Shown here piece after piece: positions 31,390 through 43,457 of a DNA stretch of 64,000 nt. The position numbers and the translations under genes are program-made. Origin of the DNA: Escherichia coli (GTDB lineage: Bacteria > Pseudomonadota > Gammaproteobacteria > Enterobacterales > Enterobacteriaceae); NCBI RefSeq assembly GCF_050920415.1, contig NZ_CP169309.1. One strand, given 5' to 3'. The stretch's first letter is position 1. Each line of letters starts with the position of its first letter. Under the pieces are notes generated by a model. The model was not told where the DNA came from. It did not search any database and saw nothing but the letters and a program-made list of their open reading frames with translations.

Positions 31390-32440
31390 GCGCGATGCAA
31401 TCAATCATATCCGGCAGTTTGGCGGGCGTCTGGATCGCTTCCGTAAATCGGTCGGCGGCTCTGGCGACGGCGGTCGTAATGCGCCGAAACGCGCGAAATC
31501 CTCGCCAAAACCGGTAAACCGCAAAACTAACGTTTTCAACGAACAGGTGCGCTATGCCTTCCACGGCGCATTGCAGGATCTGAAAAGCAAACCGTTCGCC
31601 ACGTTTTTAACGGTGATGGTTATTGCCATCTCTCTGACGCTGCCCAGCGTCTGTTATATGGTGTACAAAAACGTTAACCAGGCGGCGACGCAGTATTATC
31701 CGTCACCGCAAATCACCGTTTATCTGCAAAAAACGCTGGACGATGACGCCGCTGCGGGCGTGGTGGCACAGTTGCAGGCCGAGCAAGGTGTAGAGAAAGT
31801 AAACTATCTTTCTCGTGAAGACGCACTGGGCGAGTTCCGTAACTGGTCTGGTTTTGGTGGTGCGCTGGATATGCTGGAAGAAAACCCGCTTCCGGCAGTG
31901 GCGGTGGTAATCCCGAAACTCGATTTTCAGGGGACCGAGTCACTGAATACCTTGCGCGATCGTATCACCCAGATCAACGGCATTGACGAAGTGCGAATGG
32001 ATGACAGCTGGTTTGCCCGTCTGGCGGCGTTGACCGGGCTGGTCGGGCGCGTTTCGGCAATGATCGGCGTATTGATGGTGGCGGCAGTGTTCCTCGTCAT
32101 CGGTAACAGTGTGCGTCTGAGCATCTTTGCTCGCCGTGACTCCATTAACGTACAGAAACTGATTGGTGCGACAGATGGTTTCATCCTGCGCCCATTCCTG
32201 TACGGTGGCGCATTGCTGGGATTTTCTGGCGCATTGCTGTCATTAATTTTGTCGGAAATTCTGGTCCTGCGTTTGTCTTCGGCGGTTGCGGAAGTGGCAC
32301 AGGTTTTCGGAACGAGGTTTGATATCAATGGCTTATCTTTTGATGAATGCCTGCTATTGCTGCTGGTATGCTCGATGATTGGCTGGGTGGCAGCCTGGCT
32401 TGCCACGGTACAACATTTACGCCACTTTACGCCTGAATAA
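31382..32440 (+). CDS. ftsX: Cell-division ABC transporter permease-like protein FtsX (352 aa)
   Basis: ATG overlapping ftsE 3' end; [20 protein letters not shown]...; 4 TM segments. Confidence 0.9.
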
Positions 32441-32564
32441 TAAAAGCGTGTTATACTCTTTCCCTGCAATGGGTTCCGTAGCAGGGAAAGAGACCCCGTT
32501 GTCTCTTCCCGGTATTTCATCTCTATGTCACATTTTGTGCGTAATTTATTCACAGCGTTGCATT

Positions 32565-32591
32565 GAACTTGTGGATAAAATCACGGTCTGA
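32565..32591 (+). promoter_or_regulatory. Sigma-E dependent promoter (rpoH P3)
   Basis: GAACTT-N16-TCTGA, matching the sigma-E consensus, ~95 bp upstream of the rpoH start. Confidence 0.7.
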
Positions 32592-32684
32592 TAAAACAGT
32601 GAATGATAACCTCGTTGCTCTTAAGCTCTGGCACAGTTGTTGCTACCACTGAAGCGCCAGAAGATATCGATTGAGAGGATTTGA

Positions 32685-33539
32685 ATGACTGACAAAATGC
32701 AAAGTTTAGCTTTAGCCCCTGTTGGCAACCTGGATTCCTACATCCGGGCAGCTAACGCGTGGCCGATGTTGTCGGCTGACGAGGAGCGGGCGCTGGCTGA
32801 AAAGCTGCATTACCATGGCGATCTGGAAGCAGCAAAAACGCTGATCCTGTCTCACCTGCGGTTTGTTGTTCATATTGCTCGTAATTATGCGGGCTATGGC
32901 CTGCCACAGGCGGATTTGATTCAGGAAGGTAACATCGGCCTGATGAAAGCAGTGCGCCGTTTTAACCCGGAAGTGGGTGTGCGCCTGGTCTCCTTCGCCG
33001 TTCACTGGATCAAAGCAGAGATCCACGAATACGTTCTGCGCAACTGGCGTATCGTCAAAGTTGCGACCACCAAAGCGCAGCGCAAACTGTTCTTCAACCT
33101 GCGTAAAACCAAGCAGCGTCTGGGCTGGTTTAATCAGGATGAAGTCGAAATGGTGGCCCGTGAACTGGGCGTAACCAGCAAAGACGTACGTGAGATGGAA
33201 TCGCGTATGGCGGCACAGGACATGACCTTTGACCTGTCTTCCGACGACGATTCCGACAGCCAGCCGATGGCTCCGGTGCTCTATCTGCAGGATAAATCGT
33301 CCAACTTTGCCGACGGCATTGAAGATGATAACTGGGAAGAGCAGGCGGCAAACCGTCTGACCGACGCGATGCAGGGTCTGGATGAGCGTAGCCAGGACAT
33401 TATCCGCGCACGCTGGTTGGACGAAGACAACAAGTCCACGTTGCAGGAACTGGCTGACCGTTACGGTGTTTCCGCTGAGCGTGTGCGCCAGCTGGAAAAG
33501 AACGCGATGAAAAAACTTCGCGCTGCTATTGAAGCGTAA
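32685..33539 (+). CDS. rpoH: RNA polymerase sigma-32 heat-shock factor RpoH
   Basis: 284-aa [54 protein letters not shown]... Confidence 0.95.
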
Positions 33540-33558
33540 TTACCGCTGTTAAGCAGAG

Positions 33559-33592
33559 AACCCTGGATGAGAGTCCGGGGTTTTTGTTTTTT
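33559..33592 (+). terminator. rpoH intrinsic terminator
   Basis: Stem AACCCUGGA/UCCGGGGUU (one G-U pair) followed by TTTTTGTTTTTT. Confidence 0.7.
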
Positions 33593-33810
33593 GGACCTCT
33601 ACAATAATCAATTACCCCCTCCGACAAAACGCCAATCCCCACGCAGATTGTTAATAAACTGTCAAAATAGCTATTCCAATATCATAAAAATCGGGTATGT
33701 TTTAGCAGAGTATGCTGCTAAAGCACGGGTAGTCATGCATAAAACGAAATAAAGTGCTGAACAACAACATCACAACACACGTAATAACCAGATGAATGGG
33801 GATTCTCAGG

Positions 33811-34914
33811 ATGAATATAAAGGGTAAAGCGTTACTGGCAGGATGTATCGCGCTGGCATTCAGCAATATGGCTCTGGCAGAAGATATTAAAGTCGCGGTC
33901 GTGGGCGCAATGTCAGGTCCGGTGGCCCAGTACGGTGACCAGGAGTTTACTGGCGCAGAGCAGGCGGTTGCGGATATCAATGCTAAAGGTGGTATCAAAG
34001 GCAATAAACTGCAAATCGTAAAATATGACGATGCCTGTGACCCGAAACAGGCGGTCGCGGTGGCGAACAAAGTCGTTAACGACGGCATTAAATATGTGAT
34101 TGGTCACCTCTGCTCTTCATCAACGCAGCCAGCGTCTGACATCTACGAAGACGAAGGCATTTTAATGATCACCCCAGCAGCAACCGCACCAGAGCTGACC
34201 GCCCGTGGCTATCAGCTGATCCTGCGCACCACCGGCCTGGACTCCGACCAGGGACCGACGGCGGCGAAATATATTCTTGAGAAAGTGAAACCGCAACGCA
34301 TTGCTATCGTTCACGACAAACAGCAGTACGGCGAAGGTCTGGCGCGTGCAGTGCAGGACGGCCTGAAGAAAGGCAATGCTAACGTGGTGTTCTTTGACGG
34401 CATCACCGCCGGGGAAAAAGATTTCTCAACGCTGGTGGCGCGTCTGAAAAAAGAGAATATCGACTTCGTTTACTACGGCGGTTATCACCCGGAAATGGGG
34501 CAGATCCTGCGTCAGGCACGCGCGGCAGGGCTGAAAACTCAGTTTATGGGGCCAGAAGGCGTGGCTAACGTCTCGCTGTCTAACATTGCGGGCGAGTCAG
34601 CTGAAGGGTTGCTGGTAACCAAGCCGAAGAACTACGATCAGGTTCCGGCGAACAAACCAATTGTTGACGCGATCAAAGCGAAAAAACAGGACCCAAGCGG
34701 CGCGTTCGTCTGGACCACCTACGCCGCGCTGCAATCTTTGCAGGCGGGCCTGAATCAGTCTGACGATCCGGCTGAAATCGCCAAATACCTGAAAGCGAAC
34801 TCCGTGGATACCGTGATGGGGCCGCTGACCTGGGATGAGAAAGGCGATCTGAAAGGCTTTGAGTTCGGCGTATTTGACTGGCACGCCAACGGCACGGCGA
34901 CCGATGCGAAGTAA
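33811..34914 (+). CDS. livJ: Periplasmic Leu/Ile/Val-binding protein LivJ (367 aa; in-frame ATG at 33796 also possible)
   Basis: Signal peptide [23 protein letters not shown] then [20 protein letters not shown]. Confidence 0.9.
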
Positions 34915-34974
34915 TCATTAATCGGCAACTTTGGGTTGCCGCCAAATTGCTAATATCGAGTACGCATGCTTCAT

Positions 34975-35073
<99 letters not shown>

Positions 35074-35114
35074 AATTTCTCGTTGGTCATCACTTTTGAA
35101 ATCAAACTTGACGA

Positions 35115-35498
35115 TTAACGCTTCTCCCAGCCGCCCTGTTGTGCCGTAAACCCCAGCGCCTGCATAAACGCCGTCATCACGCCGCGATCTTCCACGCCTG
35201 CATCCGCCATCCACCAGCCTGAAACGCCAGGATTGTTACGCAAAACCTCTTCCAGCAGATATTGCCCCACACCGCGACGTCGGGTGACTTCCCGCACGCG
35301 CAGGGAATCCAGTGCCCCCTCGGTGCCGTTTAAGGTTACCCGCACGGCCGCGAGCAGGCGCTCGTTAAAACGCGCGGCGTAGATGCGGTGGTTATCGTCA
35401 ACCTGTAAAGAGGAAGGGGAGTACTCCGGCCAGATCTTTTGCAGATCAATCCGGTCCTGGTCGCTAAAGTGTTCTAAACGAATGATGGTCAGCTTCAT
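35115..35498 (-). CDS. panM: GNAT-family PanD maturation factor PanM (YhhK)
   Basis: 127-aa ORF, synteny between livJ and livK; acetyltransferase-like sequence. Confidence 0.8.
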   Translation of the reverse strand: MKLTIIRLEHFSDQDRIDLQKIWPEYSPSSLQVDDNHRIYAARFNERLLAAVRVTLNGTEGALDSLRVREVTRRRGVGQYLLEEVLRNNPGVSGWWMADAGVEDRGVMTAFMQALGFTAQQGGWEKR

Positions 35499-35921
35499 GG
35501 GAAACCCGTGTAAATCACAAAAGTGGAACCAGTGTAGCGAAATAATTTAATCGGAGGCTTTCTCTTTTTTATTTCTTTTGGCAGGTGATTAATTTTTTAA
35601 CAGCAATAATTACAAATTAAAAACATTAGAGAATGAAAAATGTCCAGCATAATCCCCTGAATGGTAGTGAATTATTCCGCCCTTTGTACCGTTATTTTAT
35701 GCTGACAACGGCGCTTTTTTCTGTTTATCTATCAATAAATTCAGAATATTATCTGTTCTTAATCGACTGAAAAATAGGGATTTTAATCGCTATTATCACA
35801 AAACACTGCGCTAAACCCTTAATCAGACAGGCAAAAACAGTGCAGTATAAAAAAAGTACAGTCTGATTTGTTAACACATAAAAACAAAGCAACACAACAT
35901 CACGAATGGGGATTTTTGACT

Positions 35922-37031
35922 ATGAAACGGAATGCGAAAACTATCATCGCAGGGATGATTGCACTGACAATTTCACACACCGCTATGGCCGACGATATTA
36001 AAGTTGCCGTTGTCGGCGCGATGTCCGGTCCGATTGCCCAGTGGGGCGATATGGAATTTAACGGCGCGCGTCAGGCGATTAAAGACATTAATGCCAAAGG
36101 GGGAATTAAAGGCGATAAGCTGGTGGGCGTGGAATATGACGACGCCTGCGACCCGAAACAAGCCGTTGCGGTCGCCAACAAAATCGTTAACGACGGCATT
36201 AAATACGTTATTGGTCATCTGTGTTCCTCCTCTACTCAGCCTGCTTCAGATATCTACGAAGACGAAGGTATTTTGATGATCTCGCCGGGGGCGACCAACC
36301 CGGAGCTGACCCAACGCGGTTATCAACACATCATGCGGACTGCCGGGCTGGACTCTTCCCAGGGGCCAACAGCGGCAAAATACATTCTTGAGACGGTGAA
36401 GCCCCAGCGCATCGCCATCATTCACGACAAACAACAGTATGGCGAAGGGCTGGCGCGTTCGGTGCAGGACGGATTGAAAGCAGCCAATGCCAACGTCGTC
36501 TTCTTCGACGGTATTACCGCTGGTGAGAAAGATTTCTCCGCGCTGATCGCCCGCCTGAAAAAAGAAAACATCGACTTCGTTTACTACGGCGGTTACTACC
36601 CGGAAATGGGGCAGATGCTGCGCCAGGCCCGTTCCGTTGGCCTGAAAACTCAGTTTATGGGGCCGGAAGGGGTGGGTAATGCGTCGCTGTCGAACATTGC
36701 CGGTGATGCCGCCGAAGGTATGTTGGTCACTATGCCAAAACGCTATGACCAGGACCCGGCAAACAAAGGCATCGTTGATGCGCTGAAAGCAGACAAAAAA
36801 GATCCGTCCGGACCTTATGTCTGGATCACCTACGCGGCGGTGCAATCTCTGGCGACTGCCCTTGAGCGTACCGGCAGCGATGAGCCGCTGGCGCTGGTGA
36901 AAGATTTAAAAGCTAACGGTGCAAACACCGTGATTGGGCCGCTGAACTGGGATGAAAAAGGCGATCTTAAGGGATTTGATTTTGGTGTCTTCCAGTGGCA
37001 CGCCGACGGTTCATCGACGGCAGCCAAGTGA
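35922..37031 (+). CDS. livK: Periplasmic leucine-specific binding protein LivK (369 aa)
   Basis: Signal peptide [23 protein letters not shown]; ~80% identical to LivJ by eye. Confidence 0.9.
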
Positions 37032-37039
37032 TCATCCCA

Positions 37040-37064
37040 CCGCCCGTGAAATGCGGGCGGTTTT
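37040..37064 (+). terminator. Intercistronic hairpin/attenuator between livK and livH
   Basis: CCGCCCG-TGAAATG-CGGGCGG followed by TTTT, 9 nt after the livK stop. Confidence 0.6.
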
Positions 37065-37078
37065 AGAAAGGTTACCTT

Positions 37079-38005
37079 ATGTCTGAGCAGTTTTTGTATT
37101 TCTTGCAGCAGATGTTTAACGGCGTCACGCTGGGCAGTACCTACGCGCTGATAGCCATCGGCTACACCATGGTTTACGGCATTATCGGCATGATCAACTT
37201 CGCCCATGGCGAGGTTTATATGATCGGCAGCTACGTCTCTTTTATGATCATCGCCGCACTGATGATGCTGGGCATTGATACCGGCTGGCTGCTGGTGGCG
37301 GCGGGATTCGTCGGCGCAATCGTCATTGCCAGCGCCTATGGCTGGAGTATCGAACGTGTGGCTTACCGCCCGGTGCGTAACTCTAAGCGCCTGATTGCGC
37401 TCATCTCGGCAATCGGCATGTCTATCTTCCTGCAAAACTACGTCAGCCTGACTGAAGGTTCGCGCGACGTGGCGCTACCCAGCCTGTTTAACGGTCAGTG
37501 GGTTGTGGGCCATAGTGAAAACTTCTCTGCCTCTATTACCACCATGCAGGCGGTGATCTGGATTGTTACCTTCCTCGCCATGTTGGCGCTGACAATTTTC
37601 ATCCGCTATTCCCGCATGGGGCGCGCCTGTCGTGCTTGCGCGGAAGACCTGAAAATGGCGAGCCTGCTTGGCATCAACACTGACCGGGTGATTGCGCTGA
37701 CCTTTGTGATTGGCGCGGCGATGGCGGCGGTGGCAGGTGTGCTGCTCGGTCAGTTCTATGGCGTAATTAACCCCTACATCGGCTTTATGGCCGGGATGAA
37801 AGCCTTTACTGCTGCGGTACTCGGTGGGATTGGCAGTATTCCGGGAGCGATGATTGGCGGCCTGATCCTGGGGATTGCGGAAGCGCTCTCTTCTGCCTAT
37901 CTGAGTACGGAATATAAGGATGTGGTTTCATTTGCCCTGCTGATTCTGGTGCTGCTGGTGATGCCGACCGGTATTCTGGGTCGCCCGGAGGTAGAGAAAG
38001 TATGA
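37079..38005 (+). CDS. livH: Branched-chain amino acid ABC transporter permease LivH
   Basis: 308-aa hydrophobic ORF, operon position. Confidence 0.95.
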
Positions 38006-39279
38006 AACCGATGCATATTGCAATGGCGCTGCTCTCTGCCGCCATGTTCTTTGTTCTCGCGGGCGTCTTTATGGGAGTGCAACTGGAGCTGGACGGCACC
38101 AAACTGGTGGTCGATACGGCTTCAGACATCCGATGGCAGTGGGTGTTTATTGGCACTGCGGTGGTCTTTTTCTTCCAGCTTGTGCGACCTGCGTTTCAGA
38201 AAGGGCTAAAAAGCGTTTCCGGGCCGAAGTTTATTCTGCCCGCGATTGATGGCTCCACGGTGAAGCAGAAACTGTTCCTCGTGGCCCTGCTGGTGCTTGC
38301 GGTGGCGTGGCCGTTTATGGTGTCGCGTGGGACGGTGGATATCGCCACCCTGACCATGATCTACATTATCCTCGGCCTCGGGCTGAACGTGGTGGTGGGG
38401 CTGTCTGGCTTACTGGTACTGGGTTACGGTGGTTTTTACGCCATCGGCGCTTACACCTTTGCCTTGCTCAATCACTATTACGGTCTTGGCTTCTGGACCT
38501 GTTTGCCGATTGCCGGGTTGATGGCGGCGGCGGCGGGATTCCTGCTCGGCTTCCCGGTGTTGCGTTTACGTGGCGACTATCTGGCGATCGTTACTCTCGG
38601 TTTCGGCGAAATTGTGCGCATATTGCTGCTCAATAACACGGAAATCACCGGCGGTCCGAACGGAATCAGTCAGATCCCGAAACCGACTCTCTTCGGACTC
38701 GAGTTCAGTCGCACCGCCCGCGAAGGCGGCTGGGATACGTTCAGCAATTTCTTTGGCCTGAAATACGACCCGTCCGATCGCGTCATCTTCCTCTACCTGG
38801 TGGCGTTACTGTTGGTGGTGTTAAGCCTGTTTGTCATTAACCGCTTACTGCGAATGCCGCTGGGCCGCGCGTGGGAAGCGTTGCGTGAAGATGAAATCGC
38901 CTGTCGTTCGCTGGGCTTAAGTCCGCGTCGTATCAAGCTGACCGCCTTTACCATCAGCGCCGCGTTTGCGGGTTTTGCCGGAACGCTGTTCGCGGCACGT
39001 CAGGGATTTGTCAGCCCGGAATCCTTCACCTTTGCCGAATCGGCGTTTGTGCTGGCGATAGTGGTGCTCGGTGGTATGGGCTCGCAATTTGCGGTGATTC
39101 TGGCTGCAATTTTGCTGGTGGTGTCGCGAGAGTTGATGCGTGATTTCAACGAATACAGCATGTTAATGCTCGGTGGTTTGATGGTGCTGATGATGATCTG
39201 GCGTCCGCAGGGCTTGCTGCCCATGACGCGCCCGCAACTCAAGCTGAAAAACGGCGCAGCGAAAGGAGAGCAGGCATGA
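38002..39279 (+). CDS. livM: Branched-chain amino acid ABC transporter permease LivM
   Basis: 425-aa hydrophobic ORF, ATGA overlap with livH. Confidence 0.95.
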
Positions 39280-40043
39280 GTCAGCCATTATTATCTGTTA
39301 ACGGCCTGATGATGCGCTTCGGCGGCCTGCTGGCGGTGAATAACGTCAATCTTGAACTGTACCCGCAGGAGATCGTCTCGTTAATCGGCCCTAACGGTGC
39401 CGGAAAAACCACGGTTTTTAACTGCCTGACCGGTTTCTACAAACCCACCGGCGGCACTATTTTACTGCGCGATCAGCATCTGGAAGGTTTGCCCGGCCAG
39501 CAAATCGCCCGCATGGGCGTGGTGCGCACCTTCCAGCATGTGCGTCTGTTCCGTGAAATGACGGTGATTGAAAACTTGCTGGTGGCGCAGCATCAGCAAC
39601 TGAAAACCGGGCTGTTCTCCGGCCTGTTGAAAACGCCTTCTTTCCGCCGCGCCCAGAGCGAAGCCCTCGACCGTGCCGCAACCTGGCTTGAGCGCATTGG
39701 TTTGCTCGAACACGCTAACCGTCAGGCGAGTAACCTGGCCTACGGTGACCAGCGCCGTCTGGAGATCGCCCGCTGCATGGTAACGCAGCCGGAGATTTTA
39801 ATGCTCGACGAACCAGCGGCAGGTCTTAACCCGAAAGAAACCAAAGAGCTGGATGAGCTGATTGCCGAACTGCGTAACCATCACAACACCACTATTTTGT
39901 TGATTGAACACGATATGAAACTGGTGATGGGGATTTCAGACAGAATTTACGTGGTCAATCAGGGGACGCCACTGGCAAACGGTACGCCTGAGCAAATCCG
40001 TAATAACCCGGACGTGATCCGTGCCTATTTAGGTGAGGCATAA
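39276..40043 (+). CDS. livG: Branched-chain amino acid ABC transporter ATP-binding protein LivG
   Basis: 255-aa ORF with Walker [10 protein letters not shown]. Confidence 0.95.
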
Positions 40044-40044
40044 G

Positions 40045-40758
40045 ATGGAAAAAGTCATGTTGTCCTTTGACAAAGTCAGTGCCCACTACGGCAAAATCCA
40101 GGCGCTGCATGAGGTGAGCCTGCATATCAATCAGGGCGAAATTGTCACGCTGATTGGCGCGAACGGGGCGGGGAAAACCACCTTGCTCGGCACGTTATGT
40201 GGCGACCCGCGCGCCACCAGCGGGCGAATTGTGTTTGATGATAAAGACATTACCGACTGGCAGACGGCGAAAATCATGCGCGAAGCGGTGGCGATTGTCC
40301 CGGAAGGACGTCGCGTCTTCTCACGCATGACGGTGGAAGAGAATCTGGCGATGGGCGGCTTTTTTGCTGAACGCGACCAGTTCCAGGAGCGCATAAAGTG
40401 GGTCTATGAACTGTTTCCACGTCTGCATGAGCGCCGTGTTCAGCGGGCGGGCACCATGTCCGGCGGTGAGCAGCAGATGCTGGCGATTGGTCGCGCGCTG
40501 ATGAGCAACCCGCGTTTATTGTTGCTTGATGAGCCATCGCTCGGTCTTGCGCCGATTATCATCCAGCAAATTTTCGACACCATCGAGCAACTGCGCGAGC
40601 AGGGGATGACTATCTTCCTCGTCGAGCAGAACGCCAACCAGGCGCTAAAGCTGGCAGATCGCGGCTATGTGCTGGAAAACGGTCATGTCGTGCTTTCCGA
40701 TACCGGCGACGCGCTACTGGCGAATGAAGCGGTGAGAAGTGCGTATTTAGGCGGGTAA
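40045..40758 (+). CDS. livF: Branched-chain amino acid ABC transporter ATP-binding protein LivF (237 aa)
   Basis: ATG directly after livG stop; Walker A GANGAGKTT, signature MSGGEQQM. Confidence 0.9.
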   Translation: MEKVMLSFDKVSAHYGKIQALHEVSLHINQGEIVTLIGANGAGKTTLLGTLCGDPRATSGRIVFDDKDITDWQTAKIMREAVAIVPEGRRVFSRMTVEENLAMGGFFAERDQFQERIKWVYELFPRLHERRVQRAGTMSGGEQQMLAIGRALMSNPRLLLLDEPSLGLAPIIIQQIFDTIEQLREQGMTIFLVEQNANQALKLADRGYVLENGHVVLSDTGDALLANEAVRSAYLGG

Positions 40759-40819
40759 TAACACGTTGATTGATAAGGAGTCAAAAGACTCCTTTGAGAC
40801 AGGTTACAAATGTAAAATT

Positions 40820-40918
<99 letters not shown>

Positions 40919-41018
40919 ATGAAACGATGAGCAATCTGTAGAGTTTGATTCAGACCTTCTATTTTTCCCGCTTATCCGTGCCCCATCTCCCAATTTCCCT
41001 CACCTACGCCGTCACTGC

Positions 41019-41094
41019 CTTGTCATCTTTCTGACACCTTACTATCTTACAAATGTAACAAAAAAGTTATTTTTCTGTAATTCGAGCATGTCAT
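41019..41094 (+). promoter_or_regulatory. ugpB promoter region with putative PhoB boxes
   Basis: CTTGTCATCTTTCTGACAC (41019-41037) and CTGTAATTCGAGCATGTCAT (41075-41094) resemble the CTGTCAT-type pho box direct repeat. Confidence 0.5.
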
Positions 41095-41155
41095 GTTACC
41101 CCGCGAGCATAAAACGCGTGAATTCGCGCATTCGGTACAACAAGAGAGATAAACG

Positions 41156-42472
41156 ATGAAACCGTTACATTATACAGCTTCAGCACTGGCGCTCGGACTG
41201 GCGTTAATGGGGAATGCACAGGCAGTGACGACCATTCCGTTCTGGCATTCTATGGAAGGGGAACTGGGTAAAGAGGTGGATTCTCTGGCCCAACGTTTTA
41301 ACGCCGAAAACCCGGATTACAAAATTGTACCGACCTATAAAGGCAACTACGAACAGAATTTAAGTGCGGGGATTGCCGCATTTCGTACCGGCAACGCGCC
41401 TGCTATTTTGCAGGTTTATGAAGTTGGCACCGCCACCATGATGGCGTCGAAAGCCATTAAACCGGTGTATGACGTGTTTAAAGAGGCGGGGATTCAATTC
41501 GATGAGTCGCAGTTTGTGCCGACGGTTTCAGGTTACTACTCCGACAGCAAAACCGGTCACTTACTCTCCCAGCCGTTCAACAGCTCGACTCCCGTTCTCT
41601 ATTACAACAAAGACGCCTTCAAGAAAGCGGGGTTAGACCCGGAACAGCCGCCGAAAACCTGGCAGGATCTGGCAGACTATGCCGCGAAACTGAAAGCCTC
41701 TGGTATGAAGTGCGGCTACGCCAGCGGCTGGCAGGGCTGGATCCAACTGGAAAACTTTAGCGCCTGGAACGGTCTGCCGTTTGCCAGCAAAAACAACGGC
41801 TTTGACGGCACGGACGCGGTGCTTGAGTTCAACAAGCCGGAGCAGGTGAAACACATCGCCATGCTCGAAGAGATGAACAAGAAGGGCGATTTCAGTTACG
41901 TAGGGCGTAAGGATGAATCTACCGAGAAGTTCTATAACGGTGATTGCGCGATGACGACCGCCTCTTCGGGTTCTCTTGCCAACATTCGCGAGTACGCCAA
42001 ATTCAACTACGGCGTAGGCATGATGCCATACGACGCCGACGCGAAAGATGCGCCACAAAACGCCATTATCGGCGGAGCCAGCCTGTGGGTGATGCAGGGC
42101 AAAGATAAAGAAACTTACACCGGCGTGGCGAAGTTCCTCGACTTCCTCGCGAAGCCAGAAAACGCTGCCGAGTGGCATCAGAAAACCGGTTATCTGCCAA
42201 TCACCAAAGCGGCGTATGACCTGACCCGTGAGCAGGGCTTTTACGAGAAAAACCCAGGGGCGGATACCGCGACGCGTCAGATGCTGAACAAGCCGCCGTT
42301 GCCGTTCACCAAAGGGCTGCGTCTGGGCAATATGCCGCAGATCCGCGTGATTGTGGATGAAGAGCTGGAAAGCGTGTGGACCGGTAAGAAGACGCCACAG
42401 CAGGCGCTGGATACCGCTGTTGAGCGTGGGAACCAGTTACTGCGCCGCTTTGAGAAATCTACGAAGTCTTAA
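41156..42472 (+). CDS. ugpB: Periplasmic sn-glycerol-3-phosphate binding protein UgpB
   Basis: 438-aa ORF with signal peptide [23 protein letters not shown]. Confidence 0.95.
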
Positions 42473-42482
42473 CCAGTGAAAT

Positions 42483-42550
42483 GTCGGATGCGTTTCGCTT
42501 ATCTGACCTGGCATCGCGTGTAGGCCGGATAAGCGAAGCGCATCCGGCAC
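42483..42550. repeat. REP pair (BIME) between ugpB and ugpA
   Basis: GTCGGATGCGTTTCGCTTATCTGACC and GTAGGCCGGATAAGCGAAGCGCATCCGGCAC. Confidence 0.7.
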
Positions 42551-42569
42551 AGTTCAGGAATTAACCGTA

Positions 42570-43457
42570 ATGTCATCATCCCGTCCGGTGTTCCGCTCGC
42601 GCTGGCTGCCTTATTTGCTGGTCGCGCCGCAGCTTATCATCACCGTTATCTTTTTTATCTGGCCTGCGGGCGAAGCGTTGTGGTACTCGCTACAAAGCGT
42701 CGATCCGTTTGGCTTTTCCAGCCAGTTTGTCGGCCTGGATAACTTCGTCACGCTGTTTCATGACAGCTACTATCTCGACTCCTTCTGGACGACGATAAAA
42801 TTCAGCACCTTTGTCACGGTCAGCGGTTTGCTGGTGTCGCTGTTCTTCGCGGCGCTGGTGGAGTATATCGTGCGCGGCAGCCGTTTCTATCAAACCTTAA
42901 TGCTGCTGCCGTATGCCGTGGCTCCCGCCGTTGCCGCCGTATTGTGGATCTTCCTGTTTAACCCTGGTCGCGGGCTGATCACTCATTTTCTCGCTGAGTT
43001 CGGCTACGACTGGAACCATGCGCAAAACAGCGGTCAGGCAATGTTCCTGGTGGTGTTTGCCTCAGTATGGAAGCAAATCAGCTACAACTTTCTGTTCTTC
43101 TATGCCGCGCTGCAATCCATTCCCCGTTCGTTGATTGAAGCCGCAGCCATCGACGGTGCAGGCCCGATTCGCCGCTTCTTTAAGATTGCGCTGCCGCTTA
43201 TCGCCCCGGTGAGCTTCTTCCTGCTGGTGGTGAACCTGGTGTACGCCTTCTTCGATACCTTCCCGGTGATCGACGCCGCCACGTCCGGCGGGCCAGTACA
43301 GGCCACCACGACGCTGATTTATAAGATCTACCGCGAAGGCTTTACCGGACTGGATTTGGCTTCATCTGCCGCGCAGTCGGTGGTGTTGATGTTCCTCGTC
43401 ATCGTGCTGACGGTGGTGCAGTTCCGCTATGTTGAAAGCAAGGTGCGTTACCAATGA
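42570..43457 (+). CDS. ugpA: sn-glycerol-3-phosphate ABC transporter permease UgpA
   Basis: 295-aa hydrophobic ORF, operon position. Confidence 0.95.

Follow-up and report, generated by a model that had tools for sequence, protein, structure and literature searches.

What does the GC-rich hairpin between livK and livH do in the livKHMGF operon of Escherichia coli: does it terminate transcription, does it protect the 3' end of the livK mRNA, or does it mainly serve the downstream gene livH? We addressed this question in a 64-kb stretch of E. coli DNA (the window), in which 1.1 kb around the hairpin is 100% identical to the genome of strain MFDS1022581 among the complete E. coli genomes. The RefSeq gene order of that genome is rpoH, livJ, panM (on the opposite strand), livK, livH, livM, livG, livF and ugpB. 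A 1.1-kb segment of the window (36500-37600) matches 5425 of the 5426 complete E. coli genomes, most of them at 95-99% identity, and because only 8 of the 5425 matching genomes are at least 99% identical, the window comes from a lineage that is uncommon at the liv locus.

The livK-livH spacer and its hairpin

The spacer extends over 47 nt from the livK stop codon (TGA, 37029-37031) to the livH ATG at 37079, and it is the sole real spacer of livKHMGF: livH and livM overlap, as do livM and livG, and livG and livF are 1 nt apart. Its sequence consists, in order, of TCATCCCA, CCGCCCGT, GAAAT, GCGGGCGG, TTTT and AGAAAGGTTACCTT, which is followed by the ATG. The features of the region are the following.

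35922-37031, plus strand: livK CDS, periplasmic Leu/Phe-binding protein (RefSeq annotation of the 100%-identical genome; NCBIfam NF011933, 699 bits)
37032-37039, plus strand: 5' flank of 8 nt, TCATCCCA, containing (R-U-Y)AUCCC and the pairing partner (A) of the first U in the tail
37040-37047, plus strand: 5' arm, CCGCCCGU (fold and repeat finder; compensatory changes at all seven core pairs)
37048-37052, plus strand: loop GAAAU (fold; polymorphic among E. coli alleles)
37053-37060, plus strand: 3' arm, GCGGGCGG (fold, repeat finder and covariation)
37061-37064, plus strand: tail UUUU, with 37064 equivalent to the K-12 Term-seq 3' end of livK
37065-37078, plus strand: A-rich stretch and livH ribosome-binding site (AGAAAGG, then a 7-nt spacer), with columns nearly invariant in alignment A1 (see below)
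37079-38005, plus strand: livH CDS, permease, first gene of livHMGF (RefSeq; NCBIfam NF008011, 672 bits)

Positions 37040-37064 read CCGCCCG TGAAAT GCGGGCGG TTTT. The CCGCCCG segment (37040-37046) pairs with CGGGCGG (37054-37060), UUUU comes next at 37061-37064, and an A-U and a U-G pair lengthen the 7-bp core stem to 9 bp. The first-pass annotation of this DNA had placed a CCGCCCG/CGGGCGG stem with a TTTT tail in the 47-nt livK-livH spacer, and both its coordinates and its gene names proved exact. An inverted-repeat finder returned arms of 8 nt at 37039-37046 and 37054-37061, 100% complementary and separated by 7 nt, and RNAfold gave a 9-bp stem from A37039-U37061 to U37047-G37053 with a loop of 5 nt. 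The stem, of 8-9 bp with seven G-C pairs, is worth about -17 kcal/mol, and a 71-nt context folds at -22.9 kcal/mol (z = -2.75), a value equalled by 1 of 200 shuffles. The stem begins 8 nt past the livK stop codon and the hairpin lies 6-7 nt 5' of the livH Shine-Dalgarno sequence. The GC-rich stem-loop that characterizes an intrinsic terminator is present in the livK-livH hairpin. Whether 65, 125, 200 or 400 nt of context are folded, the stem forms with a pairing probability of at least 0.97. The same annotation had called the hairpin attenuating; if regulated attenuation was meant, this is contradicted by the formation of the stem at that probability in all contexts, with no competing fold.

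Conservation of the stem and of the U tract

A GC-rich stem by itself is unremarkable window-wide and proves little, because 64 kb should contain about 4.3 perfect GC-rich hairpins of 7 bp or more; six were found. The pattern CCGCCCG-N(3-9)-CGGGCGG has a single occurrence in the window, where 0.00 are expected, and roughly 0.003 hairpins are expected in one given 47-nt spacer. It is the location in the spacer, together with covariation and an RNA 3' end in K-12, that raises the hairpin above chance.

From across the Enterobacterales we collected 80 loci, each from a different species, that code for close relatives of LivH, and took the spacers between the upstream livK-like gene and livH; a livK-like open reading frame was found at 76 of the 80 loci. 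A stable spacer hairpin is present in all but two of the 76, the exceptions being L035 and L049. Alignment A1 comprises 41 Enterobacterales species, and on it RNAalifold predicted the same seven core pairs, with compensatory double changes at every one of the seven. Pairing is seen in 89.4% of the pair cells in A1, and shifting the partner column by 1-3 positions brings this down to 37-53%. The observed covariation score, the percentage paired and the number of doubly changed cells were each reached by 0 of 500 shuffles. The stems themselves can be quite different: CUCUGCGGGC/GCCCGUAGAG in Phytobacter, CCUUCCGGG/CCCGGAAGG in a Klebsiella, GCCUCUGCC/GGCAGAGGC in Shimwellia, CAGCGCCUG/CAGGCGCUG in Photorhabdus, and GCCCCCG.../...CGGGGGC in Pectobacterium and Dickeya. 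Because all seven core pairs covary across the 41 species, we regard the hairpin as a structure that is kept by selection. Such a stable structure, maintained after the gene that would be expressed in excess, is characteristic of a protective stem-loop.

The two exceptional loci, L035 (Trabulsiella odontotermitis) and L049 (Enterobacteriaceae bacterium LSJC7), have short spacers of 34 and 16 nt without a stable hairpin, and they represent natural "knock-outs" for the contribution of the hairpin. Five other spacers (L007, L023, L031, L037 and L043, from a Citrobacter, Pluralibacter, Cedecea neteri and Phytobacter) carry an insertion of 60-130 nt that resembles an ERIC-type repeat, and they still keep a short hairpin and UUU beside the livH ribosome-binding site.

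The U tract behaves differently from the stem. In the window the tail UUUUAGAA has U at 4 of 8 positions and in K-12 the tail GUUUAGAA has U at 3 of 8, so that the U-rich stretch of about 7-8 nt that directly follows the stem of an intrinsic terminator is absent. A simple consensus terminator scan did not call the hairpin, because only four of the eight post-stem bases are T. The tail score, in the style of d'Aubenton-Carafa, is 2.8 for the window and 1.3-2.2 for K-12, against 4.7 for the rpoH terminator. By its sequence the livK-livH element would be classed as a sub-canonical intrinsic terminator, which could fit only a weak or partial terminator.

Among the 41 species of A1, 10 have three or more consecutive U beginning no further than 2 nt from the stem and 31 do not; at least five U among the first eight post-stem nucleotides are found in 2. 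The U tract is consequently not retained in the orthologues of these 41 species. The tails of Enterobacter (GUAUAAAAAGG), Leclercia (GACUAGAAAGG), Raoultella (CAUGAAAAAGG), Mangrovibacter (ACAGAAAAAGG) and Shimwellia (AUGCACAAAGG) would hardly be expected to terminate transcription. The conserved property therefore appears to be the stem-loop and not a terminator, and termination could not be the conserved function, because 31 of the 41 relatives are without a U run of at least three after the stem. Post-stem positions +2 to +4 are 49-66% U across the family, a share that would exceed expectation for a tail under no selection. Tails of three to four U are found in Escherichia, some Citrobacter and Salmonella, Kosakonia and others, and spacer hairpins with tails of four to seven U are found in Yersinia, Erwinia, Winslowiella and a Pantoea. 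The base immediately 5' of the stem, position 37039 in the window, is most commonly A (17 of 41 species), and an A directly 5' of a hairpin lowers read-through (bioRxiv 10.64898/2026.07.06.736697, 2026 preprint). Termination probably contributes in some lineages, Escherichia included.

Within Escherichia, the K-12 allele differs from that of the window at two positions: its loop has A where the window has G, and its tail reads GUUU instead of UUUU. The exact 60-mer of the window is present in 22 of the 5426 complete E. coli genomes, and GUUU (GGGUUU) is the reading in each of the seven other Escherichia alleles that we sampled, namely K-12, L003 (the species representative), L083-L086 and E. 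albertii. The G-to-U change in the window allele brings the U run to four and adds the A37039-U37061 pair. Because of the longer U run and the extra A-U pair, the rare window allele should terminate slightly better than the K-12 allele, and the two alleles form a natural pair for testing termination. Strains L085 and L086 have a C.U mismatch, with which their stem is worth -11.5 instead of about -17.5 kcal/mol.

Directly 5' of the hairpin is a nearly invariant motif in the Enterobacteriaceae, R-U-Y-A-U-C-C-C (37031-37038 in the window, A1 columns 6-13), which is kept even with unrelated stems and with a stop codon up to about 30 nt further upstream. In A1 columns 9-13 the consensus base is A in 28 of 35, T in 29 of 36, C in 37 of 37, C in 35 of 40 and C in 35 of 41. 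An outer helix of the minimum free energy fold, formed between the stop-codon/AUCC flank and the livH Shine-Dalgarno sequence, was rejected: it has one-sided changes only and 47-70% of its cells are paired.

The RNA 3' end of livK and how it may be formed

Curated Term-seq 3' ends for E. coli MG1655 have been published by Adams et al. 2021 (eLife; PMC7815308, Supplementary file 1). In M63 glucose medium, a "primary" livK 3' end supported by 27,317 reads was mapped to the minus strand at 3596418 (PMC7815308). We find that 3596418(-) is the last U of ...GCGGGCGGGUUU, 33 nt past the stop codon and equivalent to 37064 in the window, which gives livK a 3' UTR of 33 nt up to the mapped end. The K-12 3' end sits 3-4 nt beyond the last pair of the stem; on the K-12 allele it is thus within the U tract, as at a terminator, and directly after the stem, as at a stabilizer. 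The curated M63 list has no 3' end after livF, and in the same list the livJ 3' end is at a REP element after livJ (PMC7815308). Because the Term-seq 3' end maps to the last U past the hairpin, the hairpin-ended transcript is prominent among the liv RNAs of K-12 once the operon is expressed, as seen on the K-12 allele. A livK 3' end at the hairpin and none after livF fit a livK-only transcript and LivK in excess. The 3' end of livK at the hairpin is already contained in a public dataset. Our literature search found no measurement of livK against livH mRNA or protein and no paper discussing a livK-livH terminator, and the TERMITe, TRS and SMRT-Cappable-seq supplements have no livK entries.

The same dataset contains an internal 3' end 40 nt past the livK start codon (MG1655 3597520, minus strand; about 35962 in the window), with 34,570 reads in M63 (Adams et al. 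2021). It suggests early premature termination or pausing within livK.

We think it fairly probable that the hairpin is a constitutive RNA stem-loop that acts both as a leaky terminator and as an exonuclease barrier, and that it makes and protects the 3' end of a livK-only mRNA in livKHMGF. RNA polymerase would start at the livK promoter, and at the hairpin and its short U tract a minority of polymerases would stop, as at a weak and leaky intrinsic terminator; the remaining polymerases would read through and supply livHMGF. Transcripts that end or are cut further downstream would be trimmed back to the hairpin by 3'-5' exonucleases. The hairpin-capped livK mRNA would then outlast and outnumber the livHMGF part, giving an excess of LivK over the membrane and ATPase subunits. 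The division between termination and trimming, the stabilization of livK and the effect on protein ratios are the parts of this scheme that we infer. Leakiness is expected because the U tract is only 3-4 nt and because the stem lies just 8 nt past the livK stop codon, within reach of a terminating ribosome, which can cover its 5' arm. In vivo, a ribosome that terminates at a stop codon almost completely represses terminators lying within a few base pairs of it, and full terminator efficiency is attained only beyond about 30 bp from the stop codon (Li et al. 2015, PMC4824070). Excess production of ABC-transporter binding proteins comes about through a stabilized monocistronic mRNA or a leaky Rho-independent terminator (PMC4474525). 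Steady-state 3' ends right after stem-loops, including stable ones that lack a U tract, also come from trimming by PNPase and RNase II, and inefficient intrinsic terminators and transitional states are to be expected (Dar & Sorek 2018, PMC6061677). Because exonuclease trimming also yields 3' ends after stem-loops, Term-seq by itself does not separate termination from trimming. The proposal of the first-pass annotation that the hairpin is a partial terminator is consequently upheld in part: the stable hairpin, the U residues and the K-12 3' end speak for it, whereas the short and unconserved U tract and the alternative of trimming make termination less certain.

It is a tenable, though unlikely, alternative that there is no termination at the hairpin, and that polymerase always enters livH. 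An endonucleolytic cut or downstream Rho termination would be followed by PNPase/RNase II trimming to the hairpin, which would shield the livK segment as REP does between malE and malF. The stem, in contrast to the U tract, is conserved (through compensatory change), many relatives have tails that could hardly terminate, for instance GUAUAAAAAGG, GACUAGAAAGG and ACAGAAAAAGG, other genera carry REP-like or ERIC-like palindromes in the same spacer instead, the window has a REP pair in its ugpB-ugpA spacer, and the K-12 3' end is only 3-4 nt beyond the stem; all of this would be explained by protection without termination. The Escherichia stem, however, is followed by three to four U and preceded by an A, which is the minimal anatomy of an intrinsic terminator, and both the 49-66% U at positions +2 to +4 across the family and the spacer hairpins with four to seven U in Yersinia, Erwinia, Winslowiella and a Pantoea argue for some termination. 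There is also no C-rich, G-poor (rut-like) stretch within 400 nt downstream, where the C/G ratio is 0.65-1.33, and a downstream Rho loading site was rejected as a candidate on that ground. Expression of the liv genes in LB is expected to be low, as inferred from their control by Lrp and leucine. The LB tables of Adams et al. have no Rho termination region in livH. That the hairpin is a chance palindrome without function is very improbable. By chance the window should contain about four perfect GC-rich hairpins of 7 bp or more, some E. coli strains have the C.U mismatch that brings the stem down to -11.5 kcal/mol, and two related species are without any hairpin; but chance is contradicted by covariation at each core pair in 41 species and by the dominant RNA 3' end mapped in K-12.

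The hairpin could instead mainly serve livH, either by uncoupling its translation from livK ribosome traffic, blocking re-initiation or scanning, or by protecting the 5' end of a processed livHMGF mRNA, but we find this highly doubtful. If it were true, the subunit ratio would be set at the level of translation or processing and not by termination. It would account for the distance of 17-18 nt that separates the livH ATG from the 3' end of the hairpin at most of the 80 loci, even those from Pectobacteriaceae with 78-157-nt spacers, for the conservation of RUYAUCCC 5' of the stem irrespective of stem sequence, and for the predicted poor accessibility of the livH Shine-Dalgarno sequence (unpaired probability 0.07-0.30). 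Against it, the candidate helices between the flank and the Shine-Dalgarno sequence lack compensatory changes, and for one of them just 47% of cells are paired. In silico disruption of either arm takes the mean accessibility from the Shine-Dalgarno sequence to the AUG from 0.41 to 0.49 only, and deletion of the whole hairpin gives 0.31, so the effect is inconsistent. The hairpins of Yersinia, Serratia, Rahnella, Pantoea and Erwinia are 35-100 nt from the ATG, and purifying selection on a ribosome-binding site without indels can explain the constant distance elsewhere. It is doubtful, too, that the hairpin has a second conserved role together with the RUYAUCCC flank, in which it would insulate livH translation or cap the processed livHMGF 5' end.

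Relation to known elements and meaning for the operon

The leaky terminator and exonuclease barrier that we favor has close parallels among known systems. Like livK, gltI in the gltI-gltJ case (Miyakoshi et al. 2015, PMC4474525) is the first gene, codes for a binding protein and is followed by a spacer hairpin before the permease gene; the hairpin gives a monocistronic binding-protein mRNA and read-through gives the membrane components (PMC4474525). The leaky Rho-independent terminator of gltI-gltJ forms the 3' end of both the gltI mRNA and the SroC sRNA (PMC4474525). The gltI element differs, however, in having a conserved canonical terminator and an Hfq-bound sRNA sponge, whereas the livK-livH U tract is 3-4 nt and unconserved, the 3' UTR is 33 nt and there is no Rfam match. 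With regard to a 3'UTR-derived Hfq sRNA of the SroC type, the livK-livH element has no Rfam match and its U tail is short. We know of no sRNA from this element, but synonymous-codon conservation in livK peaks near the 3' end of the gene (see below).

Intercistronic REP stabilizers were reportedly described by Newbury et al. in 1987 for malE-malF and hisJ-hisQ. The livK-livH hairpin resembles REP stabilizers, and the stem-loops of Dar & Sorek 2018 (PMC6061677), in being a stable stem-loop after a gene needed in excess. It also resembles the protective stem-loops of Rho-dependent transcripts (PMC6061677) in that the 3' end comes right after the stem and the structure is conserved but not the U tract. 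In contrast to REP stabilizers, it is not a REP element and has a short U tract in Escherichia. A REP or other dispersed repeat was rejected as a candidate: the hairpin pattern is unique in the window and the REP-like Rfam matches are elsewhere. An Rfam scan of 32000-43000 with E up to 1 gave nothing at the hairpin. The scan did give sub-threshold matches to naRNA4 (40.4 and 40.3 bits; gathering threshold 59.5) and ES036 (28.6 bits; gathering threshold 37.6) after livJ and livF, and REP-derived elements flank the liv genes at 34968-35005, 40841-40883 and 40888-40925. The REP-type palindrome pair in the ugpB-ugpA spacer (42480-42550; ...gtcggatgcg...gtaggccggataagcgaagcgcatccggca) gives the window a second binding-protein gene with a stable structure immediately behind it.

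The rpoH terminator (33556-33585, followed by TTTTTGTTTTTT), 3.5 kb upstream, shares with the livK-livH element a GC-rich hairpin, U residues and an RNA 3' end in the U tract. It differs in having U at 10 of 12 positions, against 4 of 8 at livK-livH, and in its tail score of 4.7 against 2.8; the livK-livH hairpin, for its part, is internal to an operon, with the next start codon 14 nt downstream. Regulated attenuators, whether of the thrL/ilvL leader-peptide type or riboswitches, likewise have a hairpin and U residues upstream of a coding sequence, but the constitutive livK-livH element has no antiterminator fold, leader peptide, ligand-binding domain or Rfam match. An antiterminator or regulated attenuator was also rejected by the folding analysis: there is no competing structure in the four contexts, and the other candidate helices do not covary. 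Nor is the element a terminator for the opposite strand, where the reverse complement of the hairpin is followed by UGGGAUGA without a U tract. The "livK motif", reportedly described by Weinberg et al. in 2010, is said to be a 5' element of Pseudomonas livK and unrelated.

There are two further observations on the livJ and livK 3' regions. A hairpin follows livJ also (CGGCAAC/GTTGCCG, 7 bp, 34923-34941) and starts exactly 8 nt past the livJ stop codon; its flank, TCATTAAT, resembles the livK flank, TCATCCCA. The livJ hairpin is without a U tract, and the K-12 Term-seq 3' end of livJ is beyond it, at the REP element. The livJ and livK 3' flanks look homologous, and the hairpin may predate the livJ/livK duplication. 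Separately, synonymous-codon conservation in livK is highest at codons ~316-360 (about 36867-37001 in the window), at 0.63-0.76 against a gene mean of 0.57 in 39 species. Possible causes are an RNA element within the coding sequence, gene conversion with livJ, and codon bias.

An element of this kind is already known and would not surprise a specialist. The livK-livH hairpin illustrates how one operon gives unequal products, with much periplasmic binding protein and little membrane transporter. To this the comparative data for livKHMGF add a modest point, which is that selection has acted on the stem-loop rather than on the U tract. From that selection it follows as probable that the conserved function would be to define and protect the end of the livK mRNA, with leaky termination a lineage-specific addition.
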